Of a stretch of DNA of 64,000 nt, positions 3,071 through 62,852 are shown piece after piece. Source of the stretch: Eledone cirrhosa. Lineage: Eukaryota. The stretch is from assembly GCA_964016885.1 (NCBI GenBank), contig OZ024741.1:320478001-320542000 (forward strand), in the 5' to 3' direction. Position 1 is the stretch's first letter; every line of letters begins with the position of its first letter. The notes below the pieces were generated by a model. It saw nothing but the letters and a program-made list of their open reading frames with translations. It did not search any database and was not told where the DNA came from. The position numbers and the translations under genes were made by a program.

Positions 3071-3099
<29 letters not shown>

Positions 3100-3101
<2 letters not shown>

Positions 3102-9622: not shown

Positions 9623-9916
9623 ATGGCTGGCCCCTCGTTATCGAGTATGGCCATTGCACGATATACCATTATTAGCAATTATTAATTAATTCCATCGTGC
9701 AATGCCTGTGCGTGAAGATATTTTTTAAAGGAGGAAAGACTGTGCACTGAGCCAATCCCACTCTCTGAGAGACAGTAGCTATAACCCGAAAAGAAGAAAA
9801 GATCAACATCATCGGTAACTACTGAGCCGCAGGTTTTATATCGGAGTTATCCCAGTTTCCTGAGTTGCCTTCTCCTAGAAGAATGCCCTGACAAAGGCTA
9901 TGGGTCCTTTACTCCC
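9623..9916 (-). mobile_element. RTE-related non-autonomous element family B (partial)
   Basis: Aligns by eye to 39690-39985 and to inverse copies at 40991-41378 and 62209-62669; flanked by CATA-type repeats. Confidence 0.75.
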
Positions 9917-17000: not shown

Positions 17001-18440
17001 ATTTGGGATCTTAATAGGCAAACATGAACATTTGTGGACAGCTTAACATGTCCCTATCCTTCTTTCTAGCTAAAACCCTATCTAGGTACGATCTAGATGT
17101 TCCGCTACGATTAGTCCACGTCCACAGTGGCACAGTCGGAAAATCTAGTCGATATCTATCGGCCAGGTCAAATCGGCTGATTAACTGTTTGAGGCTTTTA
17201 CACCCCATCTATCAGGACATGCTCCCACATAGTCCCAATGTGCATCTAGGATTCCATTCCAGTCCCCCACTAAGAGCACAGAGCGGGACGTTCCCAGAAA
17301 AGTCTCTAGACGTTAGAAGAAGTCTGGCCGCGGTGTCCCGGATGGGGCATATGCGGCCACCAGCCTGAAGGCTCCACCTTCACTACCGTCAACGTCTAGG
17401 ACCACCAGTCGATCCTCCGGGTCCAGATGTACGGTCTGTGTTACGAGGTCCAGGTGTTTCCGCAGCAAAACGGCAACCCCACCCCTACCTCCCGGCTGAC
17501 AGAGAGATGCGTAGATCTCAAAGTCGTTGAAGACGGGGGCCAGTTGTCGCTCACTGTGGATCCTGGGCTCGCAAATAACTACTACATACATACTGTGCGA
17601 CTTGAGGTCGTTTAAGAGTTTGCCCTGTTTCCAGGGCATCCCCAGGCCGCGTTCACACATCCAACTCTTATATTGGCCATGTTGGTTCTGAAAAGTTAAA
17701 AGAAGAGGAAAGGAAATCACTCACCTCTTCGTCTCCTGGGGACCAGGCTGCACAATTTCCATGAGGGTGTTGGAGGGTTTGTTTGGTGCCGTGGTGGTCT
17801 CTGGAGGGGTGGGGACAGAGATGTTTGGTGTGGAGGGGGTGTCTGGTGGGATGGGGAAACATTTTAACAGGACTCGATTGTAGGGTTTGACGCAGGGGGT
17901 TACCTACGTCGTTAGGAGAGTTTTCTTTTAACTGTTTATGTGTGTGTCCATGGAGGTCCTAATCATTTTAAGATTAGGATTCTCCGAAGAGTGTGTAAAA
18001 GTTTTCCCTTCGGTCTCCATCGAAGGGTTTTTATATATGGTGTCTGTTAAAGTTTTATTGTTAGTATTTATGTAGGTGTAACATTTTTGTTGTGTTGGGT
18101 TGCTTTTTGTCTGTGGTTCTTGTGTGTGTTTACGTTTTGTTGTAGGTGTTTTGTTTTCAGGAGGGGGTATTTTTGTTTGTGCTGTTTGCGTCGCTTGTGT
18201 TGGTGTTTGTGTGTTTGCTGCATTTTTGTTAGTGTTATGTCTTTTCTTTTTTCTTTTTACTGGTCGGAAAGGCTCTCCCTCATCGTCACTGGGTGACGAT
18301 GATGAGGCCTCATCCGTGTTGTTGGGGAGGGGTACATTTTGGGGAGCTGTTATGTGTATGGGTGTTTCTGGAGTTGTTTTATGTGGGGAGGGTTTGGGTG
18401 GGACTGTGTTTGTCGTTTGTTTTATTGTCACTATTTTTTA

Positions 18441-21284: not shown

Positions 21285-21288
<4 letters not shown>

Positions 21289-24200
21289 TCGAACATAAAC
21301 AGTTCGAATAACGGTGAAATGGAGACTAGAACGTCATGTGACAGACTCTCACCCAACAGGTGCCCCCTGGCTCAGCAGCAGGAACCTGACTGTCAACCAA
21401 ATACTGCTGATGTTGGAGGAAGAAGAAGAAGGAAAGGGGCCAGAACCAACTGGACGAAAGAATTGAATAGAACTGTTATGCAATGCTACCTGAAAAGTAA
21501 CCTCAAGGAGAGGGGCTACAGGAGACGGATGCATAACATCTGGAACGAGATTGGTTTATTTAAATTAGATGAACAAAAATTGGCCGGGCAGGCTCGGGTA
21601 ATAAGAACTAATGGGTGGATAAGCGAGCTGGAACTGGAGGAACTGAGCAGAGAGATTAGCTTGGAGATGGAGGGTGGAGTATGCCAGGCAAACGAGCCAG
21701 TAGGAAATGAAGCTGTAGAGGTCAAGAGAACGGAGGAACCACCCGAAGCAGACAATGATCTGAATACTGAGATAAATAATACCTGGAACAGAGATACGGC
21801 CACTGAGGAGATGAATGCTGACGGGCTAGGACAAGATTCGGTTGACATCCTAAATTTAGTGGTAGATGAGTTGAACAATGATAGTGGGAGACCTATGAAC
21901 CTAAGATTTGTAGACAGGAAAAAGTTAAAAGAAACAACAGCTAGGGTAAACAAAGTCATCCCATACCTTGAGGCGAGGAGTCTTCACCAGTGCAACAATA
22001 TCCTCAAAGCAACAGCAAATACGGTGAGGAAACTACTTGGTATAAAAGCGAGAGGAAACAACAGACAAGAAAGAGCAGAGCCGTGGTGGAAGAAGCGACT
22101 GAGTGGGCAAATCGGGGAAATGAGAAATGACATAGGAAAGCTTGAGTCACTACTGAATGGGACACTAAAAAACATAGGCACTAAAAATAGACTGGAAATA
22201 AAATACAAAACTAGGAGTAAAAAGCTAAATATTATCATAGAGGAATTGAAGCAACGCATTGTAGCAAAGAGTGCCAAAATCAGGCGATACGAGAACAGAG
22301 TCAGTCAGTATAAACAGAACCGCATGTTCGACAACAACCAGAAGATGCTGTTTGGACAGCTTGAGGGGAAAGAAAGAGGCAACGACTTGATCCCTGGGGC
22401 GGAACAAGCTAAAACATTCTGGAGAGGAATATGGGAGCAGGATGTTAGACACAATGCCCAGGCAGGGTGGATTGAGACAGTACAGAGGGAGATCGGTGAG
22501 CAGGCACAACAACAGACTGATTTGAGTATCACAGTTGAAACTCTTAAGGGGCAAGCCAAAAAACTAACCAACTGGAAATCACCAGGCCCAGATGGTGTGC
22601 AGGGGTATTGGATTAAACATTTAACATCCCTCCACCCGAAGCTGACGGCCATGTTCAATGACTGCTTGGTGTCGGGTGAGGTGCCAGAGTGGTTGACAAA
22701 AGGTACCACAGTTCTGATAATGAAAGACCGAAACAAGGGTAATGATGTTACCAACTATAGACCTATCACATGTCTGCCCGTAATGTGGAAACTGTTGACG
22801 AGCATTGTGTCTGAGGAAATCTGCCATCACCTCCACACAAACAACTTGTTACCGGACGAACAGAAAGGATGCCGAAAGAAGTCACGTGGTACAAAGGACC
22901 AGTTGCTTATTGATAAGATGGTAATGGGGAATTGCAGGAGGAGACACACTGATCTTGCCATGGGATGGATAGACTACAGAAAGGCATTTGACATGGTGCC
23001 TCATTCCTGGATCACCAAAAGCCTGGAGATCTTCAGGGTGGCAGATAATATCAGACAGTTGCTGGGCAGGAGTATGGGGTCCTGGGAGACAGAGTTGACA
23101 TCAACTGGAGTATCCTTGGGAAGCGTGAAGATCAAGAGAGGTATCTTCCAGGGAGATAGCCTGTCCCCTCTGTTGTTTGTCCTTGCCCTGATGCCCTTGA
23201 CCATTATGCTGCGAAAAGTGAGAGCAGGATACAAGTTGGGAAGGGGAGAGCTTACCATCAATCACCTCCTCTTCATGGACGATCTTAAGCTCTTCGGGAA
23301 AAGTGAGAAGGAGTTGGATGTGCTTGTTGACACTGTCCGTATTTTCAGCAGTGATATATGTATGCAGTTTGGTATTGGTAAATGTGGAGTCATTGTGATG
23401 AAGAGGGGTAGGTTGAGCAGAAGTAACGGGATCCAGATACCAACAGGTGAGATGATAAAGGAAATTGACTCTGAGGAAGGATACAAGTATTTGGGCGTTC
23501 TGGAGGCTGATGGCATAAAGAACAAAAAAATGAAGGAATTGTTAAGAACTGAATACATTCGGAGAGTAAGGAGCGTATTGAAGTCACATCTGAACAGCAG
23601 AAATGCCATAAGCGCAGTAAATTCCCGAGCTGTGTCTATTATTAGGTACAGTGCGGGAATTCTGAGATGGAATGTTGCTGAACAAAAAGAAATGGATAGG
23701 AAGACTAGGAAGCTATTGACTATCTACAACATGTTCCACAAGAGGAGTGATGTCGATAGACTCTACCTAAGGAGACCTGAGGGTGGAAGAGGTCTTATCA
23801 GCATAGAGGACTGTGTTCAGATGGAGAAAAACAACCTATACAAATACGTGACCTATAGTAAGGAGCCAATGCTCAGAGCTGTACTGAAGGAGGGGACAGT
23901 AGGCCAGGGGATATCCAAGGAGGAAATAACATCAAGGAGGAAGAGCAGCCTTAAGGGAAAATCCCTTCATAGTACCTTCTTTGAGAAAACTGAATTTAGA
24001 GATCCACAGACATGGAACTGGTTGAGAAGAGGAGACCTCAAAAAGGCTACAGAAGGAATGCTAATGGCTGCGCAGGAGCAGGCCCTCAAAACGAAGTGGT
24101 TGAAGCACCATATCTACAAGGAGGAGGCTAGCCCACTGTGCAGGATCTGTGGAGAGAGAGAGGAGACTGTGGCCCACATTGTGTCCGAGTGTAAACACCT

Positions 24201-24790
24201 AGCCCAGACCCACTATAAGGGCTGGAGACACGATGTGATGGGCAGGGTGATCCACTGGCACCTGTGCAAAGTAAACAATCTACCACATTCTGAGAAATGG
24301 TATGAGCATAGGCCAGAGGCGGTGATGGAGAACAGTCAGGTGAAGGTGCTGTGGGATTTTAGGATACAGACGGACAAAAAACTGGAACACAATAGACCTG
24401 ACCTGGTGGTTGTGGACAAAGAAAAAAGATCGTGCCTGATTGTGGATGTGGCCTGCCCGTTCGACACGAGAGTGCAAGAGAAGGAGAGGGAGAAAATTAA
24501 CCGATACCAGGACCTAAAGTGGGAGGTGAAAAGGATTTGGAACTGCCATGAAGTCAAAGTGATCCCGATTGTCATAGGCGCACTGGGGACTATCTCCAAA
24601 GGTTTCCAGGGATGGTTAAAGAAATCGGCCCCTTCACGCTTTTTGGAACGCTTCAAAAGGCATGCTTGCTTGGAACGGCAAGAACCCTCCGATACGTCCT
24701 GAATATCTGAGGCTGCAGGTAGTGGCTTGATATTCAATCCAACGGACTTTCCAGTTAACCAACATCAATGACTGAGATTCAAGGAATAAC
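21285..24790 (+). mobile_element. Dong/R4-clade non-LTR retrotransposon, near intact, in (TAA)n
   Basis: Single long ORF; (TAA)n 5' flank and (AAT)n 3' flank. Confidence 0.93.
21319..24702 (+). CDS. RT + CCHC + restriction-like endonuclease polyprotein (1127 aa; true C-terminus probably -1 frameshifted)
   Basis: WKSPGPDG, NYRPITCL, IDYRKAFD, GIFQGDSLSP, LFMDD, GGRGL, CRIC..H..SEC, RHD, PDL..D..E..K..Y. Confidence 0.92.
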   Translation: METRTSCDRLSPNRCPLAQQQEPDCQPNTADVGGRRRRKGARTNWTKELNRTVMQCYLKSNLKERGYRRRMHNIWNEIGLFKLDEQKLAGQARVIRTNGWISELELEELSREISLEMEGGVCQANEPVGNEAVEVKRTEEPPEADNDLNTEINNTWNRDTATEEMNADGLGQDSVDILNLVVDELNNDSGRPMNLRFVDRKKLKETTARVNKVIPYLEARSLHQCNNILKATANTVRKLLGIKARGNNRQERAEPWWKKRLSGQIGEMRNDIGKLESLLNGTLKNIGTKNRLEIKYKTRSKKLNIIIEELKQRIVAKSAKIRRYENRVSQYKQNRMFDNNQKMLFGQLEGKERGNDLIPGAEQAKTFWRGIWEQDVRHNAQAGWIETVQREIGEQAQQQTDLSITVETLKGQAKKLTNWKSPGPDGVQGYWIKHLTSLHPKLTAMFNDCLVSGEVPEWLTKGTTVLIMKDRNKGNDVTNYRPITCLPVMWKLLTSIVSEEICHHLHTNNLLPDEQKGCRKKSRGTKDQLLIDKMVMGNCRRRHTDLAMGWIDYRKAFDMVPHSWITKSLEIFRVADNIRQLLGRSMGSWETELTSTGVSLGSVKIKRGIFQGDSLSPLLFVLALMPLTIMLRKVRAGYKLGRGELTINHLLFMDDLKLFGKSEKELDVLVDTVRIFSSDICMQFGIGKCGVIVMKRGRLSRSNGIQIPTGEMIKEIDSEEGYKYLGVLEADGIKNKKMKELLRTEYIRRVRSVLKSHLNSRNAISAVNSRAVSIIRYSAGILRWNVAEQKEMDRKTRKLLTIYNMFHKRSDVDRLYLRRPEGGRGLISIEDCVQMEKNNLYKYVTYSKEPMLRAVLKEGTVGQGISKEEITSRRKSSLKGKSLHSTFFEKTEFRDPQTWNWLRRGDLKKATEGMLMAAQEQALKTKWLKHHIYKEEASPLCRICGEREETVAHIVSECKHLAQTHYKGWRHDVMGRVIHWHLCKVNNLPHSEKWYEHRPEAVMENSQVKVLWDFRIQTDKKLEHNRPDLVVVDKEKRSCLIVDVACPFDTRVQEKEREKINRYQDLKWEVKRIWNCHEVKVIPIVIGALGTISKGFQGWLKKSAPSRFLERFKRHACLERQEPSDTS

Positions 24791-24820
<30 letters not shown>

Positions 24821-24822
<2 letters not shown>

Positions 24823-27350
24823 GAGTGCCAAAATCAGGCGATACGAGAACAGAGTCAGTCAGTATAAACAGAACCGCATGTTCGACAACAACCAGAAGAT
24901 GCTGTTTGGACAGCTTGAGGGGAAAGAAAGAGGCAACGACTTGATCCCTGGGGCGGAACAAGCTAAAACATTCTGGAGAGGAATATGGGAGCAGGATGTT
25001 AGACACAATGCCCAGGCAGGGTGGATTGAGACAGTACAGAGGGAGATCGGTGAGCAGTCACAACAACAGACTGATTTGAGTATCACAGTTGAAACTCTTA
25101 AGGGGCAAGCCAAAAAACTAACCAACTGGAAATCACCAGGCCCAGATGGTGTGCAGGGGTATTGGATTAAACATTTAACATCCCTCCACCCGAAGCTGAC
25201 GGCCATGTTCAATGACTGCTTGGTGTCGGGTGAGGGGCCAGAGTGGTTGACAAAAGGTACCACAGTTCTGATAATGAAAGACCGAATCAAGGGTAATGAT
25301 GTTACCAACTATAGACCTATCACATGTCTGCCCGTAATGTGGAAACTGTTGACGAGCATTGTGTCTGGGGAAATCTACCATCACCTCCACACAAACAACT
25401 TGTTACCGGACGAACAGAAAGGATGCCGAAAGAAGTCACGTGGTACAAAGGACCAGTTGCTTATTGATAAGATGGTAATGGGGAATTGCAGGAGGAGACA
25501 CACTGATCTTGCCATGGGATGGATAGACTACAGAAAGGCATTTGACATGGTGCCTCATTCCTGGATCACCAAAAGCCTGGAGATCTTCAGGGTGGCAGAT
25601 AACATCAGACAGTTGCTGGGCAGGAGTATGGGGTCCTGGGAGACAGAGTTGACATCAACTGGAGTATCCTTGGGAAGCGTGAAGATCAAGAGAGGTATCT
25701 TCCAGGGAGATAGCCTGTCCCCTCTGTTGTTTGTCCTTGCCCTGATGCCCTTGACCATTATGCTGCGAAAAGTGAGAGCAGGATACAAGTTGGGAAGGGG
25801 AGAGCTTACCATCAATCACCTCCTCTTCATGGACGATCTTAAGCTCTTCGGGAAAAGTGAGAAGGAGTTGGATGTGCTTGTTGACACTGTCCGTATTTTC
25901 AGCAGTGATATATGTATGCAGTTTGGTATTGGTAAATGTGGAGTCATTGTGATGAAGAGGGGTAGGTTGAGCAGAAGTAACGGGATCCAGATACCAACAG
26001 GTGAGATGATAAAGGAAATTGACTCTGAGGAAGGATACAAGTATTTGGGCGTTCTGGAGGCTGATGGCATAAAGAACAAAAAAATGAAGGAATTGTTAAG
26101 AACTGAATACATTCGGAGAGTAAGGAGCGTATTGAAGTCACATCTGAACAGCAGAAATGCCATAAGCGCAGTAAATTCCCGAGCTGTGTCTATTATTAGG
26201 TACAGTGCGGGAATTCTGAGATGGAATGTTGCTGAACAAAAAGAAATGGATAGGAAGACTAGGAAGCTATTGACTATCTACAACATGTTCCACAAGAGGA
26301 GTGATGTCGATAGACTCTACATAAGGAGATCTGAGGGTGGAAGAGGTCTTATCAGCATAGAGGACTGTGTTCAGATGGAGAAAAACAACCTATACAAATA
26401 CGTGACCTATAGTAAGGAGCCAATGCTCAGAACTGTACTGAAGGAGGGGACAGTAGGCCAGGGGATGTCCAAGGAGGAAATAACATCAAGGAGGAAGAGC
26501 AGCCTTAAGGGAAAATCCCTTCATAGTACCTTCTTTGAGAAAATCTGAATTTAGAGATCCACAGACATGGAACTGGTTGAGAAGAGGAGACCTCAAAAAG
26601 GCTACAGAAGGAATGCTAATGGCTGCGCAGGAGCAGGCCCTCAAAACGAAGTGGTTGAAGCACCATATCTACAAGGAGGAGGCTAGCCCACTGTGCAGGA
26701 TCTGTGGAGAGAGAGAGGAGACTGTGGCTCACATTGTGTCCGAGTGTAAACACCTAGCCCAGACCCACTATAAGGGCTGGAGACACGATGTGATGGGCAG
26801 GGTGATCCACTGGCACCTGTGCAAAGTAAACAAGCTACCACATTCTGAGAAATGGTATGAGCATAGGCCAGAGGCGGTGATGGAGAACAGTCAGGTGAAG
26901 GTGCTGTGGGATTTTAGGATACAGACGGACAAAAAACTGGAACACAATAGACCTGACCTGGTGGTTGTGGACAAAGAAAAAAGATCGTGCCTGATTGTGG
27001 ATGTGGCCTGCCCGTTCGACACGAGAGTGCAAGAGAAGGAGAGGGAGAAAATTAACCGATACCAGGACCTAAAGTGGGAGGTGAAAAGGATTTGGAACTG
27101 CCATGAAGTCAAAGTGATCCCGATTGTCATAGGCGCACTGGGGACTATCTCCAAAGGTTTCCAGGGATGGTTAAAGAAAATCGGCCCTTCACGCTTTTTG
27201 GAACGCTTCAAAAGGCATGCTTGCTTGGAACAGCAAGAACCCTCCGATATGTCCTGAATATCTGAGGCTGCAGGTAGTGGCTTGATATTCAATCCAACGG
27301 ACTTTCCAGTTAACCAACATCAATGACTGAGATTCAAGGAATAACAATAA
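24821..27350 (+). mobile_element. Second, 5'-truncated Dong/R4 copy in tandem
   Basis: Near-identical to copy 1 from about 22267; ORFs 24878-26548 and 26535-27257 are split by a 1-nt insertion near 26544; (AAT)n tail. Confidence 0.93.
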
Positions 27351-32980: not shown

Positions 32981-33157
32981 ATATACATACATGCATACAT
33001 GCATACATTACATGCATACATACATACATACATACATACATACATACATACATACATACATACATACATACATACATACATACATACATACATACATACA
33101 TAATGGCTGCCCCATCGTTATCGAATATGGCCATTGCACGATATAACATTATCAATA

Positions 33158-33776
33158 TAAGTATGTGTTACGTACATACATATATGTATACAGACGTACA
33201 GTAGTATGTATATATATATATACATACATGCACACATATATGTATATGTACGTATGGATTCACCGAACATTTATTATAATGCTCGGTGTGTTTGTAAATA
33301 AACATCCCGAATTAAGCCGTAGTGTCTAGCAACCATCGTTGCTCGTTTGTTCAACACTGACAAAGGAACGCTGTACTAGTTTCAAGCTTATTAGCTATCG
33401 TCAGCAACGTATACCTTCATGCCAGATGGTTGAACGTCTGAAAGTATATACTTTCCTTATGCATATTAACGGCTGAGCAGCCTAATTTGTATATCGAGTG
33501 AGTTAATCGACCGGGATACCGAAAACGATAAACGGAAAAAATGAAACCAAATTTCATTTCTCACTCTTAGTATGGCTGTTACTTAAATATAAGTATGTAT
33601 ACGTACATACATATATGTATACAGACGTACAGTAGTATGTATATATATATACATACATGCCCACATATATATGTGTGCATGTATATATATATATACATAC
33701 TACTGTACGTCTGTATACATATATGTATGTACGTATACATACTTATATTTAAGTAACAGCCGTACTAAGAGTGAGA
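33158..33776 (-). mobile_element. ORF-less hammerhead element: about 431-bp unit + about 80-bp partial repeat + fold-back, with 13-bp TSD
   Basis: 33155-33240 repeats at about 33587-33670; inverted repeat 33557-33778; AACATTATCAATA at 33145-33157 and 33777-33789. Confidence 0.75.
33369..33409 (-). ncRNA. Minimal type I hammerhead ribozyme
   Basis: Minus strand reads CGTTG-CTGACGA-TAGCT AATA AGCTT-GAAA-CTAG-TA-CAGCG; palindromic stem III ACTAGT; GUA triplet; U-U at the base of stem II. Confidence 0.8.
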
Positions 33777-34039
33777 AACATTATCAATAATTATCAATTA
33801 ATGATATGTGCAATGCTTGTGCTTGAAGATTTTTTTTTAAAGTGAGGAAAGACTGTGCACTGACCAATCCCACTCCCTGAGCGACAGTAGCTATAACACG
33901 AAAAGAAGAAAACATTAACATCATCGGTAACTACTGAGCCGCAGGATTTATGTCGGTGTTATCCCATACATACATACATACATACATACATACATACATA
34001 CATACATACATACATACATACATACATACATACATACGT

Positions 34040-34259
34040 ATACCAAACCGCTTGGACCAAAGTATGACCTAACTTGCATTTGTGGGAAAAGGGTGCAGCT
34101 CCCTAATTCATAGACTACAAACGGTCGCGATAGCTGGCACCTCCAAAATTTGCAAAACATTCTTTTGATTCAGGGGATGACAATTTCTTTTCTTTTAAAA
34201 CCTTGCAACCAGGAAGATGGCCGGTCAAAAATGTACTCGAAATTTAAAAAAAGAGAAAC
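34040..34259 (+). mobile_element. Short 3' fragment of R4-like LINE in (CATA)n
   Basis: Homologous to 20862-21082. Confidence 0.8.
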
Positions 34260-34446
34260 ATACATACATCCCAATAACTTATTTTAGTTATTGTTCGCGT
34301 TAGCGTGAGGTATCTGGTCTTTATTGCGAAGAAATACCTATGATGGCTAGTAGACCACTGATGATGGATAGTCTTGGCTTCTATTTCTAATTCTTCATTT
34401 TAATTTGTACATACATACATACATACTTACATACATACATACATAC

Positions 34447-37400
34447 GAATAAAAAACCAAATAATGAAATAATACGTGTTATTGACGAAATAGAGGATGA
34501 ATATTTACGACGGATAAAAACCCCAACATTTTGGCAAATCAACGCCTGTATATATGCCTTAGCAATGACAGTGAAGCATTATCTTGGTGATAGCAGGGAT
34601 ATTAACAAGAACAAAACACCACCAAAAATACCATCATATATAACTAAAATAGAAAAAAAGAGTGCTGACCTATGAAAAAACATAGGACATGTGATAATTG
34701 TTTCTACTTTAGGCACAAGGCCAGCAATTACCCAGTGCATTACTGGTACTTTATTTTATCGACCCCGTAAGGATGAAAGGCAAATGCTCCTTACATGCAA
34801 ACAAACACAAAAAAAACCTCACTCCTCACCAACAAAGAGTGAAAAATAAAATAGAGACGATGTTTGGTAACAGTAGAACCAGAACTCTCCAATATAAGCT
34901 GATCACCCTCAAACAAGAATTGAGAGCTGTTAGCGAAAAACGCCGATACCTGAAGAAGGTAGACGAGAGAAAAGTGCTTAATAAAAGATTCAGACGAAAC
35001 CAAACATCAGTCTATAGAGATATGAAGGGGAAAATAATAAGTGTCACTGAGGCCCCATCCCAGAAAGACATAGATTCCTTTTTGAGAAAAATATGGGGTG
35101 AAAAGAAGAATTTCAACCAAGATGCAGTGTGGCTAAGAGAAATCCGAAAGAACTATTGCTCCTACACTACAACAAAAACATACGAAATAAGTGAGGGTAC
35201 CCTTGAGACTGTGATAGGAAAACTCCAAGATAAGAAAACACCAGGAAGAGACATGATTGTCGGCTACTGGTACAAAAAACTATTCTATCGGAGGTATCTT
35301 ACTGACCTCTACCAACAAGTTCTTAAGGGAAATACACTTATACCAGAATGGTTGACATTAGCACAAACGTTACTGGTCCCCAAGAACAAAGACACCCACT
35401 TGGCAAAAAAACTACCGACCCATTGCATGCCAGAACCTGATGTATAAGATGTATACAGCCTGCCTGAACCTATTCCTCCAAGATCACTGTGAAAATAATA
35501 ACATCATCACAGATGAACAAGCAGCTGGAAAGTAAGGGGTTTGGGGATGTGCTGAACACTCCTAATCAACAAAACTGCGATGTCGGAGGTGCGACAACTT
35601 AGGAGGAATATTGCTACAGTCTGGCTGGAAAGCTTTCGATTCTGTTCCCCACTCTTGGATGGTAGAGGCCTTCCAATTTGCTAAAGGCCCAGACATTATT
35701 GTCAGAGCCATAGAGAAGCTGTCTTCTTCTTGGGCTACTATCCTAAGGTTAAATACAGAGAGGGAGGACTCTATTTTCACTGATAAAATAAAACATTGCA
35801 GTGGTATATTTCAGGGGGACAGTCTCTCTGTGATATTTTTGATCTTGTCATTAAACCCCTTGTCCTTTCTGCTTAAGAAATGTGAGGGATACATCATTGG
35901 CTCACAGGAGGACAGAAATACGAACCTAACCCATAATTTCTTTGTGGACGATCTGAAACTCTATACGAAGAACATGGATGGGATGAAGAAAAATCTTGAC
36001 CTGATTACAACGTTCACAAAGGATATAGGAATGGAGTTTGGCCAAGATAAATGCTCATACATGACTGTAAAACGGGGAAAAACAACAACCCAATATAGCA
36101 ACATTGTCATCAATGGTCTAACTGTTTCACCGATATCTGATGAGGACTGCTACAGATACCTGGGGATAGATGAGAACATATCCTATAATGGTATCTGTAA
36201 TAAATAACGCGTAACCAGGGAATACTACACCCGATTAAGAAAGATTTGGTCATCGGAACTCTCTGCGCAAAACAAAACAGTGGCTCACAATGTGTTTGCT
36301 GTGCCTGTCCTAACACCAACGTTTGGAATACTCAATTGGACGATAGACGAAATCCGAGCAGTTGATGTTGGAATTCGAAAAATACTGAACAACACCGGAA
36401 ACTTCCACATCAACAGTGACATAGACCGTCTTTATTTGAAACGTAAGCAGGGAGGCAGAGGCCTAACATAAGTCGAGACAACATTTGAATGTCGCATCAT
36501 ATCTCTCCGATAACATCTACGAACCACGAAGCGTAGGAGCCCGCTTTTCAAGCAAGTCTATCTGCATGAAACAGATAAGATCATGAGAGTTGGGAAGGAA
36601 CTCCACGAGAGATATTCCTTCTGTGATAATCAAAAACTCACACCCAAGGAAGTCGCTCAGCAGTATCGCAGTGAATCCATGGATGAAAAACTGCATGCCT
36701 ATCAGCAAAAAACCATGCATGGATATGTTGCCAGGAAGCTCCAGAGTGAGAGTAATATAGATAAGGAAAGTAGTCTATCTTGGACCAACAATCGCTATAT
36801 TGGCTCCGACTTTGAAGGATACGCTTTTGCAATCCAGGAACAGGAGATTAGCAGGAAATACCTGATTCACAAAAGAGATCGGGATGCAGGCAAAACACCT
36901 AGATGTGATAACAAGTGCAGACTCTGCAGAACTATCATCGAGGATATCACCCATGTCATCAGCAGCTGTCCAAAGATGTCACCGCCATACTATCTACCTA
37001 TGAGACATGATATAGTGGTCAAAACACTGTATAATACAGTTCGTAAAAAAGATAGCCCCGATAATAAACACATTAAAAGCTACAAGAATGTGGAAGTCAT
37101 CCATGTACATAATATGAAAGAGTACTGGTGGAATGTTCCAGTAAAAACCCCAATAAAATGCAGGCATAACAGACCAGATATTATGATATGGGACAGGGAG
37201 AAGTAAACATGCACAGTAATGGAAATTAGCTGCCCAGTAGATGTCAATATAATATCAAACATTAGCGAAAAGGAGAATATTTATGCAGAACTGATGAGAA
37301 ATCTGCAGATACTGATTACACCTTCAGATTTATGCCTGTGATTATTGGGGCACTGGGATATGTTAGTAACTGCCTCAGTACAAATCTTGAAAAGCTAGGC

Positions 37401-37729
37401 TTCACAGGAACAGAAAGAACACAACTAGTTAGGAAATTACAAGTACAATCCATTAATGGAACAGTAAAAATATGTAAAACATTCCAAAATTTTGCATCTA
37501 ATAACTGCATATACACATGTACAGATACAAAGCATATACACATGCACACATACAACTCAAAACATACACATCCATACATACTATAACATCCATATCTACA
37601 CATGCATGCATACATACATATCCACCTAGTTGATGTTGTGTAAATTCCAATGAGAGAGTCTTGTGTCTATGTTAGAAACCGACTCTCTCTCTATTGGGAA
37701 AACTTTGTGAAATTATAAAACCAGAAGAA
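34447..37729 (+). pseudogene. Decayed R4-like (RLE) LINE in (CATA)n, containing a partial SINE at about 34698-34785
   Basis: KAFDSVPHSW, GIFQGDSLS, FFVDDLKLY, GGRGL, CRLC..THVISSC, RHD, HNRPD; several stops. Confidence 0.88.
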
Positions 37730-37825
37730 CATACATACATACATACATACATACATACATACATACATACATACATACATACATACATACATACATACAT
37801 ACATACATACATACATACATACATA

Positions 37826-39640
37826 CGAACCTAACCCATAATTTCTTTGTGGATGATCTGAAACTCTATGCCAAGAACATGGATCGGATGAAGAAAAATC
37901 TTGACCTGGTTACAACGTCTCAAAGGATATAGGAATGGAGTTTGGCCAAGATAAATGCTCATATATGACTGTAAAGTAGGGAAAAAAAACAACCCAATAT
38001 AGCAACATGACATCAATGGCCTAACTGTTTCACCGATATCTGATGAGGACTGCTACAGATACCTGGGGATAGATGAGAACATATCCTATAATGGTATTTG
38101 TAATAAGGAATGCGTAACCAGGGAATACTACACCCGATTAAGAAAGATTTGGTCATCGGAACTCTCTGCGCAAAACAAAACAGTGGCTCACAATGTGTTT
38201 GCTGTGCCTGTCCTAACACCAACGTTTGGAATACTCAACTGAACGATAGACGAAATCCGAGCAGTTGATGTTGGAACTCGAAAAATACTAAACAACATCG
38301 GAAACTTCCACATCAACAGTGACATAGACTGCCTTTACTTGAAACGGTAAGCAGGGAGGCAGAGGCCTAACATCAGTCCAGACAACATTTGAATGTCGCA
38401 TCATATCCCTCCGACAACATCTACGAACCTCGAAGCGTAGGAGCCCGTCTCTCGAGCAAGTCTATCTGCATGAAACAGATAAGATCGTGAGAGTTGGGAA
38501 TGAACTCCTCGAGAGGTATTCCCTGTGTGATAATCAAAAACTCACACCCAAGGAAGTCGCTCAGCAGTATCGCAGTGAATCCATGGATGAAAAACTGCAT
38601 GCTTATCAGCAAAAAATCATGCAGGGATATGTTGCCAGGAAGCTCCAGAGTGAGAGTAATATAGATAAGGAAAGTAGTCTATCTTGAACCAACAACCGCT
38701 ATATTGACTCCCACTTTGAATGATACGCTTTTGCAATCCAAGAACAGGAAATTAACACGAAATACCTGATTCACAAAAGAGATAGGGATGCAGGCAAATC
38801 ACCTAGATGTGATAACATGTGCAGACTCTGCAGAACTAACATCGAGGATATCATCAGCAGTGGTCCAAAGATCTAATCGCGGTACTATCTACCCATGAGG
38901 CATGATGTAGTGGCCAAAACACTGTACAATGCTATCCGTAAAAAAGATAGCCCCGATAATAAACACATCAAAAGCTACAGCAATGTGGAAGACATCCACG
39001 TATGAAAGAGTACTGGTGGAATGTTCCAGTAAAAACCCCAATGAAATGCACGCATAACAGACCAGATATTATGATATGGGACAGGGAGAAGTAAGCATGC
39101 ACAGTAGTGGAAATTAGCTGCCCAGCAGATGCCAATATAATATCAAAGATTAGCGAAAAAGAGAATATTTATGCAGAACTGATGAGAAATATGCATATAC
39201 TGATTACACCTTCAGATTTATGCCTGTGATTATTAGGGCACTGGGGTATGTTAGTAACTGCCTCAATACAAATCTTGAGAAGCTACGCTTCACAGGAACA
39301 GAAAGAACGCAACTAGTTAGGAAATTACAAGTACAATCCAGTAATTACAAGTACAATGAAGTACAAAACAGTAAAAATATGTAAAACATTCCAAAAATTT
39401 TGCGTCTAATAACTGCATATACACATGTACAAATACAAAGCATATACACATGCACACATACAACTCAAAACATACAATACACATCCACATATACAATAAC
39501 ATCCATATCTACAAATGCATGCATACATAATCTACCTAGTTGATGTTATGTAAATTCCAATGAGAGAGTCTTGTGTCTATGTTAGAAACCGACTCTTACT
39601 CTATTGGGAATAAAATTGTGAAATTATAAAACCAGAAGAA
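37826..39640 (+). pseudogene. Tandem 5'-truncated copy of the same R4-like family
   Basis: Aligns to about 35920-37729; inserted in the (CATA)n tail of the preceding copy. Confidence 0.88.
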
Positions 39641-39689
39641 CATACATACATACTACATACATACTGCATATATACATACATACAAACAT

Positions 39690-40307
39690 GATGGCTGCCC
39701 CCTCGTTACCGAGTATGGCCATTGCACGATATACCATTATTAATAATTATTAATTAATTCTATCCTGCAATGCCTGTGCGTGAAGATATTTTTTAAAGTG
39801 AGGAAACACCGCGCTGAGCCAATCCCACTCTCTGAGCGACAGTAGCTATAACCCGAAAAGAAGAAAAGATCAACAGCATCGGTAACTACTGAGCCGAAGG
39901 ATTTATATTGGAGTTATCCCAGTTCCCTCAGTTGCTTTCTCCCAGAAGAATGCCCTGACAAAGGCTAGGGGTCCTTCACTTCCAGTGGTTTAACGGCGCG
40001 ATCAGGTGTCCAGTCCGACTATTTCTATGTCCCTGCGCATATACATACTCATGCACCCATGTATATACACATATACATATACATACATATGTACTTGTTT
40101 ATATACATATTTATACACTTTTGGATGGCCGTTGACTCTTATGAATTCTTCCGCCCTTTGTCAGGTATTGTTTTTTGTCCTGCAGGGTGTCCAAAATCAC
40201 CCTCCTCACCAAGTAAACTTGGTGGGGTTGCGGGTTTAGTCGCCGACGACCCGACCATGCGAAAGGTTGTACTGGGTTACATGTTGCCTGTAGCACTCAA
40301 GAGTGAC
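39690..40307 (-). mobile_element. RTE-related non-autonomous element family B (full length)
   Basis: 5' part homologous to family A (GGCGACTAAAC..ACCCCACCAAG); (CATA)n flanks. Confidence 0.78.
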
Positions 40308-40990
40308 ATACATACAACATACATACATATATACATACATACATATATGCATACTACATACAACATACATACATACATGCATACTGCATATAAACATACA
40401 AACATACATACGTTGATACATACATACTTACTGCATACATACAAATATACATACATACAAACGTACATACATACATACTCAAAACATACATACTAGATAC
40501 ATACATAAGGCATTTTATATGTACATCGATCTGTTATACTCTAATAGGTTGGAGAGAAAGTTAATTAGAAGATAACAAAAATATATTATTTATTGCGAAT
40601 TCTAACCGCCTTTAACAATGATTGTCAAAAATATATTTATTTCTTCCAAGTGATTATGTATATAATTATAGATTCTGGTTTTTCTAGTTATAAATATAGT
40701 CAGTTTTGCTAGGTTAAAGTCATAAATGAAGAATTATTGCTACTGGCATTACAGCTGAGGAAAATAGATGTTTGTCGTCGTTGTTGTTGTTCTTGTTGTT
40801 GTTGTTCTTGTTGTAGCTGTTGTTGGTGGTGCTGTTGTTCAATAAGAGCGATTTTCAAAACTTTTCTCTCAATAATCCAAGACATAGCCATATGGTTAAG
40901 AGCTTAGCTTCGCAACCACATGGTTCTCAGTCTATTTTCGGTATGAAGGACCTACGACTAAAATGTATGAGTTAAAGACTGTTCGGGAGA

Positions 40991-41378
40991 GCGTTGACTC
41001 TTATGGAATAACCTATAAGAGGCAACGACCATCCGAAAGTGTGTAAATATGTATATAGGCATGTACCATGCAGTTAAACCACTGGGAGTGAAGGACCCCT
41101 AGCCTCTGTCAGGCCATTCTTCTAGGAAAAGGCAACTCAGGAAACTGGGATAACTCCGATATAAAACCTGCGGCTCAATAGTTACCGATTATGTTGATCT
41201 TTTCTTCTTTTCGGGTTATAGCTACTGTTGCTCAGAGAGTGAGATTGGCTCGGTGCACAGTGTTTCCTCACTTTTAAAAATATCTTGACGCACAGCCATT
41301 GCACGATAGAATTAATTAATAGTTATTAATAACAGTATAACATGCAATGGTCATACTCGATAACGAGGGGCAGCCATC
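40991..41378 (+). mobile_element. Family B element (partial, opposite orientation)
   Basis: Reverse complement of 39690-40140 with a short 5' fold-back. Confidence 0.75.
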
Positions 41379-41379
41379 A

Positions 41380-41436
<57 letters not shown>

Positions 41437-41655
41437 TTAAGTTAAAAATGTACATCCACATATGTATACTGAAATACTAGTATGCATATGAATACACACA
41501 CGTATACATATGTAGATGTACCGAGTTTTTCACTGGTCACTTTACTGTGAGTGTCCAGCTATTCTGTATGTAAACACACAGACAAACCGGTTTTTAGAGT
41601 CATACTGGTTTTTGAGGAAACACCTTTCCTCTATTCTCCAGAAAGCCAGACAAGG

Positions 41656-41700
41656 AATATTGAACTAGTTTCGATGTTGTTACATCTCATCAGCAATATT
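41656..41700 (-). ncRNA. Minimal type I hammerhead ribozyme
   Basis: Minus strand reads AATATTG-CTGATGA-GATGT AACA ACATC-GAAA-CTAG-TT-CAATATT; perfect stems I and II; GUU triplet. Confidence 0.9.
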
Positions 41701-42121
41701 TACCTATCTTCCGGCCTTTCTAGAGAATCGTAAAAGCACATATCGTTATATGCTTTTTCTATGAAAATTAGTAGTGGGCAGACTAATTTGCATAGAGCGT
41801 GAGTACGTACCGGTTCAACGGAGACGATAAAAACAAATAACGAAACGAAATTAAATTTCGTTTCGTTTGTAACTCACTTTTGTATGACTGACGCTTAAAC
41901 AATTAAGTTAAAAATGTACATCCACATATGTATACTGAAATACTAGTATGCATATGAATACACACACGTATACATATGTAGATGTACCGAGTTTTTCACT
42001 GGTCACTTTACTGTGAGTGTCCAGCTATTCTGTATGTAAACACATAGACAAACCGGTTTTTAGAGTCATACTGGTTTTTGAGGAAACACCTTTCCTCTAT
42101 TCTCCAGAAAGCCAGACAAGG

Positions 42122-42166
42122 AATATTGAACTAGTTTCGATGTTGTTACATCTCATCAGCAATATT
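42122..42166 (-). ncRNA. Minimal type I hammerhead ribozyme (second copy)
   Basis: Identical to 41656-41700, 466 bp away. Confidence 0.9.
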
Positions 42167-42689
42167 TACCTATCTTCCGGCCTTTCTAGAGAATCGTAAA
42201 AGCACATATCGTTATATGCTTTTTCTATGAAAATTAGTAGTGGGCAGACTAATTTGCATAGAGCGTGAGTACATACCGGTTCAACGGAGACGATAAAAAC
42301 AAATAACGAAACGAAATTAAATTTCGTTTCGTTTGTAACTCACTTTTGTATGACTTGTTTTTATCCCCTCCCCCCAAAAACAGTGCCTACTGTGTGGTGT
42401 ATCTGTATAAGATTGGTGAAAGATGTGACATCTATCTTTAGTAGTTGCAGCAATTACATAGACTCCCAGCAAGAGACGAACTCATATGTTCATTTGAAAA
42501 TACATTCTGTTGCCTGTCAAGTAAGAAGCAATCCGTGAAAAATTCATTCTTAAGACAGATGTGAAATCTTATCGTTAAATACACCAGCTTATCAATATTT
42601 ACATGCAGTCGTGTTTATACCTGCCCACGTACATACTTATAAATTTAATATATCTCACACACACACGCACATACTTACATATATGCATA

Positions 42690-45260: not shown

Positions 45261-45470
45261 GTAATTTGATTGGTTGGTCAATAATTATAATAAATTTCGC
45301 GCCAGTTCGCGTTACAAAGTTCTTCACAAACAGGGGCGGGGGGCTCAGGTTGTTTTTTCATATATGAGTGTTTGAATTTCTTTTTACTTAAAAAAAAGGG
45401 GATCACGAAGGCTTTTTTTTAATAAACGTAATTTGATTGGTTATAAATGAAATTATGTCTGTCACGTGAA
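45261..45470. promoter_or_regulatory. Candidate promoter-like motif cluster (CCAAT, E2F, GC box, CHR-like, E-box)
   Basis: ATTGG 45269-45273 and 45436-45440; TTTCGCGCCA 45295-45304; GGGGCGGGG 45333-45341; TTTGAA 45371-45376; CACGTG 45463-45468. Confidence 0.3.
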
Positions 45471-46043
45471 CAAGTTTTCATTAAAATTTGTGCCCGTATT
45501 TGGAAATCTATTCTGTAGCCTTTTTAGAGAATTTTATGACAAGCAAAAGATAATGGTCAAGAGAAATGGGATGGGAGAATTGTTCTGGTTCAGTGAATAT
45601 GGTTAGTTCGCTGGGGTGTCAGAATTCAGATTTTCTATTGAAATAAAGAAAGTAAAGATATGTATGTTTATTTGTGTGCTTGTGTGTGTGTGTGTGTGTG
45701 TTGCGTGTGTGTGTTTGAATTTCTTTTTACTTAAAAAAAAAGAAGGGCCTCACGAAGGCTTTTTTTTTATAAACGTAATTTGATTGGTTATAAATGAAAT
45801 TATGGCTGTCACGTGAACAAGTTTTCATTAAATATAGCGCCCGTATTTGGAAATCTATTCTGTAGCCTTTTTAGAGAATTTTATGACAAGCAAAAGATAA
45901 TGGTCAAGAGAAATGGGGTGGGTGAATTGTTCTGGTTCAGTGAATATGGTTAGTTCGCTGAGGTGTCAGAATTCAGATTTTCTATTGAAATAAAGAAAGT
46001 AAAGATATGTATGTTTATTTATGTGCTTGTGTGTGTGTGTGTG
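45368..46043. repeat. Tandem duplication, period about 343 bp
   Basis: GTGTTTGAATTTCTTTTTACTT at 45368 and 45711; units end in (GT)n. Confidence 0.9.
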
Positions 46044-46576
46044 TATTGGAAGATGATTCTATTAGTAGAAATGGGGAAGGGAGTTGTGTGTGTGTGTGTA
46101 TATGGGTGTTATGTGTGTGTGTGTGGGAGTATGTTAAGATGGAGAGAATATATATATTTTGTGAGTGTGTATATATATATGTGTGTAGGAAAGTGATTCA
46201 ATTAGTAGAAATGGGGGAGGGAGTTGTGTGTGTGTGGGGTGGGGGTTGTTATGTGTGTGTATGGGTGTTATGCGTGTGTGGGAGCATGGTTAGCATGTTA
46301 AGATGAAGAGAATATATATATATTGTGTGTGTGTGTGTGTGTAGGAAAATGATTCCTTTAGTAGGAATATTTTTGAATGAACATATTTTCCTTACTTATT
46401 GAGTATCTGATCAGAGCTCTATCTCAAAATTATTTTTGAAAAGCATTAGTAATGCGCAACCGGTAAAACTTAAAACCAAAACTGAATACTAACCAATAAT
46501 TTTACTAATTCTCACTTATTCCTAATTAAACTATTTTTCACTGTGAACAATTTGTCAGCATTTCCTATTCCGTTTA

Positions 46577-48159: not shown

Positions 48160-48214
48160 ACTGCTATATATATTTCAGTGACAGCCATCTTTGGCTGTGA
48201 CCTCTTCAGGCAGT
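48160..48214 (-). ncRNA. Type I hammerhead ribozyme in a pLTR-like segment beside a Penelope element
   Basis: Minus strand reads ACTGC-CTGAAGA-GGTCACAGCCA AAGA TGGCTGTCACT-GAAA-TATATA-TA-GCAGT; palindromic stem III; AUA triplet. Confidence 0.85.
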
Positions 48215-48264: not shown

Positions 48265-48346
48265 TTGTCAATACTCTGATATGCCCAGTTCCTTGTTGGG
48301 TTGTTAACAACCCAACAAGGAACTGGGCATATCAGAGTATTGACAA
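48265..48346. repeat. Perfect 82-bp spacerless palindrome
   Basis: 41-bp arms centred at 48305/48306. Confidence 0.95.
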
Positions 48347-51300
48347 AGTGATACATATGATACATTTCCTATTGGTACAGTGGGTTTTCTTAAAAGGGTA
48401 GGTTTTCCTGATCAGGGATCTTATGGTGGTTCCTGGCTTTTCTACCACCTTTATTTTTAAGTGGGTCTTTCTCAGGGCCTTTCTACACTGGTTAGCTAAT
48501 TTCCCTCCAGGGGTGGCGTCCACAAACATGACAGTCTGGTATCTCTGGTGAACAGTAACGGTGAAGTAAACAACAATACATCTAGCAATCATAACAATAA
48601 TAGTAATGCTAATGATAGAAACAACAACAACCACCCTGATAACAATAATAGCAACACACACAACTATGACGATAGATATAATGACAACCCTTAGAGAAAC
48701 TATTTTTCAACCCAGCTGACAAAACATATAAGATGGGTAATATCTATCCTACGAGGTTACCGTTTAATAAAAGAGTTTGCATAGCACAACAAATAGATGA
48801 CGAGACAGAGGCACAGTTCACCATAGCTAGAAATAAGATTAGACAAATAGTAGACAGGTATACTAAGAGACAGAGCAGACCAGAGGCCCAACAACTTGGG
48901 AGGAAACCTGTAGAAGGCTTGGTTAGCCTCAAGCAGCGCACAAGGGATGGTGAGGTAGTGTGTCTACCCACGGATAAGTCTGGTAGGATGTCAATAGATA
49001 GCATGCCGAACTACATCGAGGCTATGCAACCCCACATCACCAACACGGGCGAAATTGCACAACAAACACACGATGGGAGAGAAAAAATCCTCAACGCTCA
49101 CATGATGATGTGGACTGACATCCTAAAGCCAAGCAGACGCACTGCCAACAAATTCCATGCGTCTAAAAATGGCATACTACCCTTGTATGGGCTCCGCAAA
49201 GACCACAAGACAGTCGACGACCCGACAACAGGACCACCAACAAGACCCGTATGCGGAGCTAATATAGCTAGCAACTACAGGATCTCCTACTTCCTCTCAA
49301 TGGTTATACGCCCCATAATCAAGATGTCCCCAGATGTATGTGACAGTACAGAGGACCTCCTCAGTAGAATCAGTGAGTGCAACAAAAACAGGAGCCTATC
49401 CAACTGCATAATAGGCAGCATGGATGTGGTGTCACTGTACCCATCCATTAACATTGATTTTGCTGTGAAAAGATGTGTGGAGATGATCAGTGATAGTGAG
49501 GTGGAGTTCTGCGACGTCGACACAGACGAACTGGGCCTCCTACTTAGACTTACCTTCGACACTGACTACCTAGACAGCCATGACCTTAGATGTTTCTGCC
49601 CTAGTAGACCTATAAGAGGTAGACCGCCCACCATAACCTCAATGGCAAAAAAGACTCCCATGGGAAGGTGGATTGGGTGGACCAAAGCTATACGGACCCC
49701 CCCAAAACAATGATCAGGTAAGAAAAATGGTCGCACATGCAATAGGGGCTAGTATTAAAACTACCCTAAAGGGCCACATATTTAAGTTCAATGAGAAAAT
49801 CCACACCCAAAATGAGGGAGCAGCCATCGGCGTCAGCATAGCTGGTGATGTTGCCAACCTTTTCATGGTATGGTGGGAAAGGAGACTTAAAGATCTCCTT
49901 AATGAAAGCTCCATAGACCTCATCATGTACTCTCGTTATGTAGACGATATCAATATAGTTATAAGAACACCCCCACTAGAGAGCACTAGTAAGTTTTATT
50001 TAGAACGTAGCACGATGGAAAGCATCCAGCAGATAGCTAATTCCATACACCAGAGTATAACTGTAACTATCGACTTCCCTTCCAAACACCCTAACAATAA
50101 ACTACCTGTATTAGACACAGAACTCTGGATTAACACTATAGACGAGAGAGTCCAAATTCTCCACTCACACTATGCTAAACCCATGGCCTCCAAATACCTG
50201 ATACTCAAAAACTCAGCAATGTCCAGTTGTGCTAAGTTTAATATTCTGATCGCAGATTTGGTACGAGTGATGAAGAATGTGTCCCGCATGTGCGACCCAA
50301 CAGAAATGGAAAAACACATCCAACACTTCATCAACCGCATGCAGTTCTCTGGCTACAACCAAAGAGACAGAATCAGAGTATACGAAGGAGCCATGGAAAA
50401 GTATAAGACCCTCATAGAACTGGACATGAAAGGAATTTGTCCATTATACAGGAGCAAATCATGGAATAGCTTAGATAGGGCTAGACATAAGATAGGGAAA
50501 GCCACCTCATGGTACGACAACCAGAGATACCAGAGTGTCATGTTTGTGGACGCCACCCCTGGAGGGAAATTAGCTAACCAGTGTAGAAAGGCCCTGAGAA
50601 AGACCCACTTAAAAATAAAGGTGGTAGAAAAGCCAGGAACCACCATAAAATCCCTGATTAGCAAAACCTACCCTTTTAAGAAAACCCACTGTACCAATAG
50701 GAAATGTATCATATGTAAGGTGAACCCCCGGATAAACTGTAAAACTAGAAACGTAGTCTATAGCATAAGATGTACAGAGGGTACTTGCAGACACATGACA
50801 ACAGCATACATAGGTGAGACAGCTCGTAGCATAGGTGAAAGGATAGTCCAACACTGTGGGGAACTAAAAGGACGAAAAAACGGGTCAGTACTATACGAAC
50901 ATGCTAGACAACAACATGACGGTAATATAGACAACATAGAAATTAGAATAATATCTAAATATAGAAATGACCCAGCAGATAGGCAAATCAGAGAGGCCAG
51001 TGAAATAGAAATTAGAAGACCAAAGCTAAACAAAAAGAATGAATGGAATAACAACAACACCCAAACAAACAACACTGACCTAAGAGAAGTATAAATAAGT
51101 AAATTATATAAAATAAGATAAATAAATAAATAAATAAATACATACACAAGCACAATAACAACAAGCACATAAACACACACTAGTCACCCATCAAACAACA
51201 AACATAACACTATACACACACGCAAACGCATGCGCAAAGAAAACAAAATAAAATAAACAAACAAGCAAATAAATAAATAAATAAATATATAGACAGACTG

Positions 51301-62208: not shown

Positions 62209-62669
62209 TCATAAGAGTCAACGGCCATCCAAAAGTGTGTAAATATGTATATAAACATGTACATATGTATGTATATGTATATGTGTATATACATGGGTGC
62301 ATATGTATGTATATGCGCGGGGACATAGAAATAGTCGGTCGGGCTGGATACCCGAATGCGTGGTTAAAACACTGGCAGTGAAGGACCCCTAGCCTTTGTC
62401 AGGGCATCCTTCTAGGAGAAGGCTACTCAGAAAACAGGGATAACTCCGATATAAAACCTGCGGCTCAGTAGTTACCGATGATGTTGATCTTTTCTTTTTT
62501 TCGGGTTATAGCTACAGTTGCTCAGAGAGTGGGATTGGCTCAGTACACAGTCTTTCCTCACTTTAAAAAATATCTTCACGCACATGCATTGAACGAGAGA
62601 ATTAACTGATAATTATTAATAATGGTATATCGTGCAATGGGCATACTTGATACCGAGGGGGCAGCCATT
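62209..62669 (+). mobile_element. Family B element (partial)
   Basis: Reverse complement of 39690-40143; (TATG)n tail. Confidence 0.78.
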
Positions 62670-62852
62670 ATGTATGTATGTATATGTAGATATCTGGACG
62701 ATTTGTAATTGAAATACGGTTATAAAATTATATCAATCCACACAAACATCGCCAGTAGGTAGTACAGAGTATCACGAAATGCGCGTTACACCTCAATAAA
62801 CGTGATGAAGATCTAATACTTCGTCCTTTTTATTATCAGTATATATAGAGAG

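Follow-up and report, generated by a model that had tools for sequence, protein, structure and literature searches.

How is a short non-coding RNA copied into chromosomal DNA, and where does reverse transcription begin if this RNA is a circle without a 3' end? The question is raised by two divergent hammerhead repeats in a stretch of 64,000 nt from Eledone cirrhosa (GenBank assembly GCA_964016885.1, contig OZ024741.1), here called the window, which corresponds to C2:320,478,001–320,542,000 of a microsatellite-rich 3.0-Gb assembly. By their sequence, the repeats are best assigned to two related families of animal retrozymes that lack long terminal repeats (non-LTR retrozymes). Elements of this class were reported to be expressed as circles and Penelope-like elements were proposed as their movers, while the parts of the two main accounts considered here leave both the mover and the priming of a circular RNA open (PMC7229834; bioRxiv 10.64898/2026.07.22.740005). 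Our analysis indicates that the retrozymes of E. cirrhosa have two fixed end sites in their predicted fold and that they are most likely copied into (TA)n tracts by the reverse transcriptase and GIY-YIG nuclease of Penelope-like elements of the Neptune type, a reading to which we assign a probability of roughly 0.8.

Two end sites and their pairing

The first end site, site A, is the loop of a CTTA..TAAG hairpin that spans the junction of adjacent units. Site B is found 62–77 nt 3' of site A, downstream of a hairpin and a U-rich run and in a motif common to both families (positions 33528 and 41827 of the window). The left ends of both insertions in the window are located in the loop of the junction hairpin, 216–220 and 227 nt 3' of the predicted cleavage site, close to the approximately 210–225 nt given in a preliminary description of this DNA. 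Genome copies were located by sequence patterns, and outer 3' ends were read from 39 loci in chromosome order containing 41 insertions, with an intact core as requirement and with the intervals for A and B set after viewing the data. From 58 ends, 24 were assigned to A, 23 to B and 11 to other positions, which places 47 ends in two intervals that together make up about 7% of the unit (p = 3e-44). (TA)4 was present within 20 nt of 39 of these 47 ends, and ends at B were exact to the base in 39 of 52 cases. With unchanged intervals, 27 of 32 ends in 20 new loci were at A or B, nine of these loci having been picked for an anchor on both strands. The mapping of 3' ends thus confirmed the predicted clustering, including that at the junction loop, but not a single site, because A and B were used about equally.

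The two sites are not combined at random. Among head-to-head insertions with both ends assigned, a set of 75 loci contained 22 with A at one end and B at the other, two with B at both ends and none with A at both ends (p = 2e-5). The 20 new loci contributed nine further A+B insertions, no homotypic ones and three with an unassigned end, so that the total over both sets is 31 A+B, 2 B+B and 0 A+A; two of the new A+B loci (L239 and L240) resemble one duplicated insertion, and all tallies exclude L004, a duplicate locus, as well as L061 and L062, which are the halves of one long array. The common end point of the preliminary description is therefore real as site A, but it is only one of two sites that are paired at opposite ends of an insertion. 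A second arm or stub of the complementary type was also detected in 7 of 34 apparently one-armed copies, whereas one copy had a weak match of the same type and 26 had none; by the same test, control flanks had a match of at least 10 nt in 1 of 150 cases. Insertion 2 of the window is one of the seven complementary copies.

The window contains three hammerhead cores, all on the minus strand (33404–33374, 41693–41663 and 42159–42129). All are of type I: stem I is open, stem II is short, and stem III consists of one pair with the palindrome CUAG as its cap. The features of the two insertions are as follows.

33145..33157, plus strand: target-site duplication of insertion 1, left copy, 13 bp; the target is present once in four window paralogues of the host repeat
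33154..33684, minus strand: long arm of insertion 1, a putative retrozyme of family 1 that comprises a 432-nt unit and about 100 nt more; the RNA 3' end is site A and overlaps the duplication by a few bases
33368..33410, minus strand: predicted family 1 hammerhead, type I, with 6-bp stem I, CUGACGA core, one-pair stem III and CUAG loop
33526..33531, minus strand: site B of family 1, with 33528 as the end of copies; a hairpin and a U-rich run lie immediately 5' of it
33580..33595, minus strand: junction hairpin of family 1; its 4-nt loop (33586–33589) is site A
33663..33778, plus strand: inverted arm of insertion 1, about 116 nt
33777..33789, plus strand: target-site duplication of insertion 1, right copy
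41436..42355, minus strand: insertion 2, putative family 2 retrozyme, 1.97 tandem units of 466 nt
41656..41700, minus strand: predicted family 2 hammerhead of the first unit, type I, with 7-bp stem I, CUGAUGA core, 5-bp stem II and CUAG loop
41825..41830, minus strand: site B of family 2 (copies end at 41827; 42293 is the equivalent in the second unit)
41894..41907, minus strand: junction hairpin of family 2, with site A as its loop
42122..42166, minus strand: predicted hammerhead of the second family 2 unit
42355..42365, plus strand: inverted stub of 11 nt that exactly matches the bases leading up to site B and forms a minimal second arm

Insertion 1 has site A at its left end, and the paralogues that carry its 13-bp target once represent empty sites. 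Its hammerhead is predicted to cut after GUA, between 33374 and 33373, and has a U.U instead of a pair at the base of stem II. In insertion 2, the two tandem units differ at 2 of 454 positions, the RNA 3' end at site A adjoins a (TA)n tract (41379–41434), and the hammerhead of the first unit is predicted to cut after GUU, between 41663 and 41662. Due to its stub ending at site B, insertion 2 is counted as A+B. The order of motifs given in the preliminary description is borne out by alignment of both units, but the hammerheads themselves read on the minus strand and not on the plus strand. Likewise, the extents had to be revised: the first unit, given as 33158–33586, has a period of 432 nt (33158–33589), insertion 1 continues to 33778 through its inverted arm, and insertion 2 consists of two units plus the stub. 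The host repeat of insertion 1 is dispersed, has a length of several hundred bases, lies next to microsatellites (33100–33960, 9620–9730, 39690–39810, 41150–41380 and 62550–62670) and also flanks insertion 2.

A common predicted fold in two abundant families

A generic pattern of the hammerhead core had 40,667 exact matches in the genome, compared to 25 for the reversed control. The first 100 matches listed were all from the two families, and patterns with other stem II lengths gave only 267 and 184 matches. Repeat periods range from 422 to 538 nt, and the copies vary between dispersed monomers and long arrays. For family 2, an exact 38-mer occurred 954 times, including an array of 31 consecutive units that covers 14 kb (C1:5738000–5752750, the above-mentioned L061 and L062) and has site A at one end and an inverted arm ending at B at the other. 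Another family 2 array of more than 30 kb is located at C1:81846900–81880000, where missing matches at intervals suggest a higher-order structure. Solitary, decayed hammerhead-like motifs with a conserved CUAG loop, other stems and flanks unrelated to both families were noticed at seven further loci (L168, L170, L171, L174, L175, L176 and L179). The 30 best-matching family 1 loci were mostly 90–97% identical across the unit. Together, the sequences point to an old fold in young copies, the latter because family 2 units differ by only about 0–9 nt in 466. Part of family 2 was found in all of four public sequencing runs with four organism codes, indicating that it is not confined to this assembly, and a compensated stem II pair (41674 with 41685) was found in three of the four.

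Similar to the known metazoan non-LTR retrozymes, as far as these are described in the consulted parts of PMC7229834 and bioRxiv 10.64898/2026.07.22.740005, the units combine a type I hammerhead per unit with short tandem repeats, low G+C content (0.36), very high copy number and no coding frame, the longest ATG frames having 46 and 50 codons. Sequence tests thus support membership in this class by a hammerhead in each unit, dispersed tandem repeats, a G+C content below 45–50% and the lack of a frame. No LTR layout was seen in the units, and the one target duplication read has 13 bp, where more than 4 bp is characteristic of the class, although no dedicated search for a primer-binding site or polypurine tract was made. 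At the gathering score, Rfam had no match in the window; below threshold, the HH9 hammerhead family matched unit 2 only (E = 2e-6), and matches to miRNA families at relaxed thresholds were discarded as noise from AT-rich hairpins.

The units of the two families are collinear, with 252 of 479 alignment columns identical. Their non-repetitive parts reached a local score of 132, compared to a mean of 25.5 (sd 3.9, maximum 40) in 300 dinucleotide shuffles, far above chance. It had also been noted that stems I and II differ in sequence yet keep pairing, and indeed 8 of 22 pairs were changed on both sides in seven natural copies, with 94.6% of the cells pairing in register and 33–47% in slid controls of the hammerhead arm. 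The outer stem described alongside them is present in both folds but does not enter the pair count, owing to a shift of the alignment by one column at this place, and the ACTAGT of stem III is invariant as described. Three further compensated positions in the closing helix were read from the folds, and the GTGAG/CTCAC helix contains one. Helices of the A–B region were compared from the folds, the automatic alignment having misplaced the family 2 helices. When folded as circles, a check suggested by the preliminary description, five natural monomers from both families adopted a largely common predicted order of helices. The junction hairpin and the closing helix come first, followed by a helix around the tail hairpin, a pair of hairpins, the hammerhead arm, another three hairpins and finally a long AT-rich hairpin. 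The circular folds had z-scores between –8.9 and –13.2 in the hammerhead sense, compared to –4.3 to –6.1 in antisense (25 shuffles each). Selection most simply acts on the replication of the element itself and not for the host.

Template, mover and alternative explanations

Just 3' of the cleavage site, 10,808 of 13,094 family 1 anchors continue through an exact core at exact spacing. Among the first 100 anchors, 16 did not; 13 of these had a mutated or deleted core yet continued, and three stopped within about 7 nt of the cut, approximately as expected if 500-nt arms were truncated at random. We therefore rejected a discrete 5' stop at the cleavage site; at the upstream edge of stem I, where 5 of 74 arms end within 10 nt, stopping is weak at best. 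Since the arms, which can be longer than one unit, run through the cleavage site and the 5' ends of 74 arms (median length 506 nt) are scattered round the unit, the template was likely a circle or an uncleaved multimer and not a cleaved linear monomer. This agrees with the earlier view of a structured-RNA family with a defined start of reverse transcription on a circular or multimeric template, except that two paired start sites take the place of a single one. A hammerhead was present on both strands at 21 loci; in six of them, the two arms were closer to each other than to any foreign arm and shared private variants, although three of the comparisons appear to cross the inversion joint and two loci are possibly separate insertions. 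The variants shared by arms of one insertion favour one template molecule or one source locus per insertion.

A candidate for the mover is abundant in the genome. We found 10,596 GIY-YIG candidates, of which 150 were scored, and the fetched examples encode a reverse transcriptase that has a GIY-YIG domain at its C-terminus and a linker of the form CX2-5CXXC, which is described as a mark of Neptune and Nematis elements (consulted part of PMC8557442). Judged by eye, three autonomous Neptune-type families end beside (TA)n at two sites that are about 40, 50 and 64 nt apart, and both inverted autonomous examples (L096 and L104) carry the tail on one arm only. The retrozyme insertions have the same traits, namely two adjacent 3' end sites, an inverted, 5'-truncated arm with a tail at one end, and an AT-rich or microsatellite target. 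They are not themselves autonomous Penelope-like elements, as they lack an open reading frame (ORF) for reverse transcriptase and GIY-YIG nuclease. Family 1 copies next to Neptune-type elements (L101 and L102) are separate insertions in the adjoining (TA)n.

By analogy with known retrozymes, tandem transcripts would self-cleave, probably as hammerhead dimers formed via the palindromic CUAG loop, and the cleaved units would be ligated to circles of 420–540 nt. The behaviour of the Poseidon element in vitro suggests that the protein may then bind the folded A–B region. In AT-rich DNA, it would nick the two strands at a distance of about 13 bp and prime one cDNA at A and the other at B, aided by 2–5 nt of AU-rich microhomology. 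Both cDNAs would run round the template for variable lengths before they are joined head to head, whereas failure of one arm would leave a one-armed, 5'-truncated copy. More tentatively, and with more doubt than confidence, it can be imagined that one Penelope-type dimer on a single circle primes the two strands asymmetrically, A by one subunit and B by the other, and that strand-displacing rolling-circle reverse transcription produces even 14-kb head-to-head arrays in one event. If this were true, the A–B fold would be a portable loading signal of 100 nt, which could turn any circular RNA into a substrate for two-ended, (TA)n-directed integration.

Several observations weigh against transposition by a Penelope-type enzyme from two fixed start sites. 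Besides the 11 of 58 ends outside A and B, 5 of 32 ends in the new loci were outside (one of them at a locus edge), and 16 of 40 two-armed insertions in the 75-locus set had at least one end at neither site. In the window, the inverted arm of insertion 1 stops about 30 nt short of site B. Target duplications are unreadable inside (TA)n, and only one clear case was verified. Only 14 of 21 loci had a distance between the arms of one insertion that was smaller than the family median. Neither 40 GIY-YIG loci nor 35 loci with other stem II lengths contained an autonomous element similar in sequence to the retrozymes. Furthermore, the tail of 62–77 nt is longer than the 30–40 bp of Penelope-like elements, and the start site of Poseidon in vitro was equal on both strands and not homologous to the target (consulted part of PMC11167929). 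Finally, the covariation is descriptive of the predicted fold and not a significance test, because there are only about four to five related lineages and the structure was drawn from these same sequences.

The alternative that survives best retains the enzyme and the start sites and differs from the reading preferred here in the template only, which would be an uncleaved linear multimer; hammerhead and circle would be dispensable and long arrays would grow later by unequal crossing-over. It is compatible with the rest of our results, and read-through of the cleavage site is explained equally well by an uncleaved multimer and by a circle. The weak U.U at the base of stem II in family 1 and the non-identity of units inside one array (0–8 differences) point in the same direction. 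In the consulted parts of the respective papers, unprocessed RNA was the main substrate of Poseidon and hammerhead mutants were inserted normally (PMC11167929), and only one of nine frog retrozyme dimers was cleaved in vitro, the other eight remaining uncleaved (bioRxiv 10.64898/2026.07.22.740005). On the other hand, the catalytic core was kept in both families while stems I and II underwent compensated changes, in the circular fold the unit junction is bridged by both the site A hairpin and the long-range closing helix, and related retrozymes of coral, mussel and axolotl accumulate as circles (consulted part of PMC7229834). We regard such an uncleaved linear template as rather unlikely.

Mobilization by a long interspersed nuclear element (LINE)-type enzyme, with target-primed reverse transcription, twin priming and fixed ends that correspond to RNA 3' ends, appears very unlikely. 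Twin priming by L1 also yields inversions, but it differs from the arrangement seen here, in which the start of the second arm is fixed and lies downstream of that of the first, with overlap between the sequences of the two. LINE reverse transcriptase genes are present, several LINE fragments lie in the window, and LINEs were named as possible movers (consulted part of PMC7229834). However, the element has no poly(A) or simple-repeat tail of its own, both ends are internal to the tandem unit with the only predicted cut 216–300 nt away, and Neptune-type elements of this genome show the same insertion geometry; the A+B pairing weakens this explanation as well. A DNA-level origin, by recombination or slippage between (TA)n tracts and the AT-rich hairpins of a satellite-like repeat or by palindrome assembly errors, could account for the 39 of 47 ends abutting (TA)n, the short TA microhomology at both sites, the long arrays (31 consecutive matches at C1:5.74–5.75 Mb) and some of the other ends, which fall in the AT-rich hairpin of the unit, but it is highly improbable, since ends cluster at A and B although the longest TA run of the unit lies in the AT-rich hairpin, B ends are mostly base-exact, A ends are also found in non-(TA)n targets with a target duplication, the 5' ends are scattered, and slippage gives no reason for the pairing of A with B.

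Further repeats were noticed in the window. A Penelope-like element in two frames (48685–51094, plus strand) has the reverse transcriptase motif YVDD, a cysteine linker and a GIY-YIG-like end; its 3' flank extends to about 51650, includes a hammerhead-like motif (51353) and ends beside (TA)n, and L181 encodes a near-identical protein. A second hammerhead-like motif (48165–48209, minus strand) lies just upstream, as does a near-perfect palindrome of about 80 bp (~48267–48346) that is probably an inversion joint. Two frames at 60299–61629 (minus strand) are flanked by 99-bp repeats (59844–60044 and 61737–61960); without a Pfam match, they presumably resemble a second, divergent Penelope-type reverse transcriptase region. 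Pfam recognised none of the four Penelope-like frames of the window. By eye, the start of a 347-bp direct repeat (45368–46044) matches the reverse complement of the Neptune-type pseudo-LTR (pLTR) of L091–L102. Other short palindromic or hammerhead repeats in (TA)n by Penelope-like elements (L080, L101, L104, L105, L110, L096 and L098) may be further non-autonomous families. A LINE at 21286–27257 (plus strand) has an open frame of 1138 amino acids with RVT_1 and zinc-finger domains, followed by a tandem partial copy, and decayed LINE pieces are located at 2871–4946, 14603–17010 and 34713–37206.

Relation to known elements and significance

Within the retrozymes, the one-pair stem III with a palindromic tetraloop resembles the axolotl HHR_Amex1, and the U.U at the base of stem II resembles HHR_Amex2. 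The units described here exceed the circles of 170–400 nt given in PMC7229834 and are within the range of 51–972 bp given in bioRxiv 10.64898/2026.07.22.740005. The consulted parts of both sources contain no maps of insertion ends, start sites, inverted arms or (TA)n targets, and Penelope-like movers were proposed there from co-occurrence and pLTR similarity. In contrast, our argument is built on insertion geometry, and no similarity between the retrozymes and the pLTR of an autonomous Penelope-like family was found in 40 loci of the 10,596 candidates. Our literature search, which covered neither supplements nor subscription literature, revealed no paper mapping retrozyme insertion ends or start sites. 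Relevant literature on octopus hammerhead ribozymes, twin priming of retrozymes or microsatellite insertion sites of non-LTR retrozymes was not found either, and the consulted main text of an octopus repeat annotation does not mention hammerheads, ribozymes or retrozymes (PMC13282606).

Penelope-like elements are described as having an inverted pLTR, an optional tail that is often at one end and a bias for (TA)n (consulted parts of PMC3846280 and PMC8557442). For Poseidon from Anolis, cutting and extension of both strands, nicks in AT-rich DNA and two internal start sites that define the tail were observed in vitro (consulted part of PMC11167929). The retrozymes share with the endonuclease-containing (EN+) members of this group, as far as described in the consulted parts of these three papers, two adjacent internal start sites defining the tail, a tail at one end of inverted insertions, AT-rich or (TA)n targets, partial tandems, a hammerhead upstream of the start sites and a duplication of about 8–13 bp. 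Unlike these elements, the retrozymes have no ORF, and their hammerhead has the full canonical type I motif. Their start sites are a hairpin loop and a position after a U-rich run, with short microhomology to the target, whereas an AC-rich stem-loop is described for Penelope-like elements. Non-autonomous Chlamys elements such as MRC1 are similarly non-coding, form head-to-tail multicopy insertions and have a Penelope-like mover, but their 3' end is similar to that of the autonomous partner, and canonical hammerheads are mostly absent from Naiad/Chlamys elements (consulted part of PMC8557442).

Both the retrozyme class and the one-end tail of Penelope-like elements are already known, which limits the surprise. 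New is a counted Penelope-type two-start footprint on a non-coding RNA, with a predicted fold that has been conserved in families which have diverged. Through the A+B pairing, the qualitative observation of a tail at one end becomes a countable rule, and genome evidence alone answers part of the question how animal retrozymes are moved and primed. As a non-coding RNA of about 450 nt that was recently active and is present in tens of thousands of copies, the retrozyme of E. cirrhosa is therefore a minimal substrate for dissecting Penelope-type two-strand priming in vitro.

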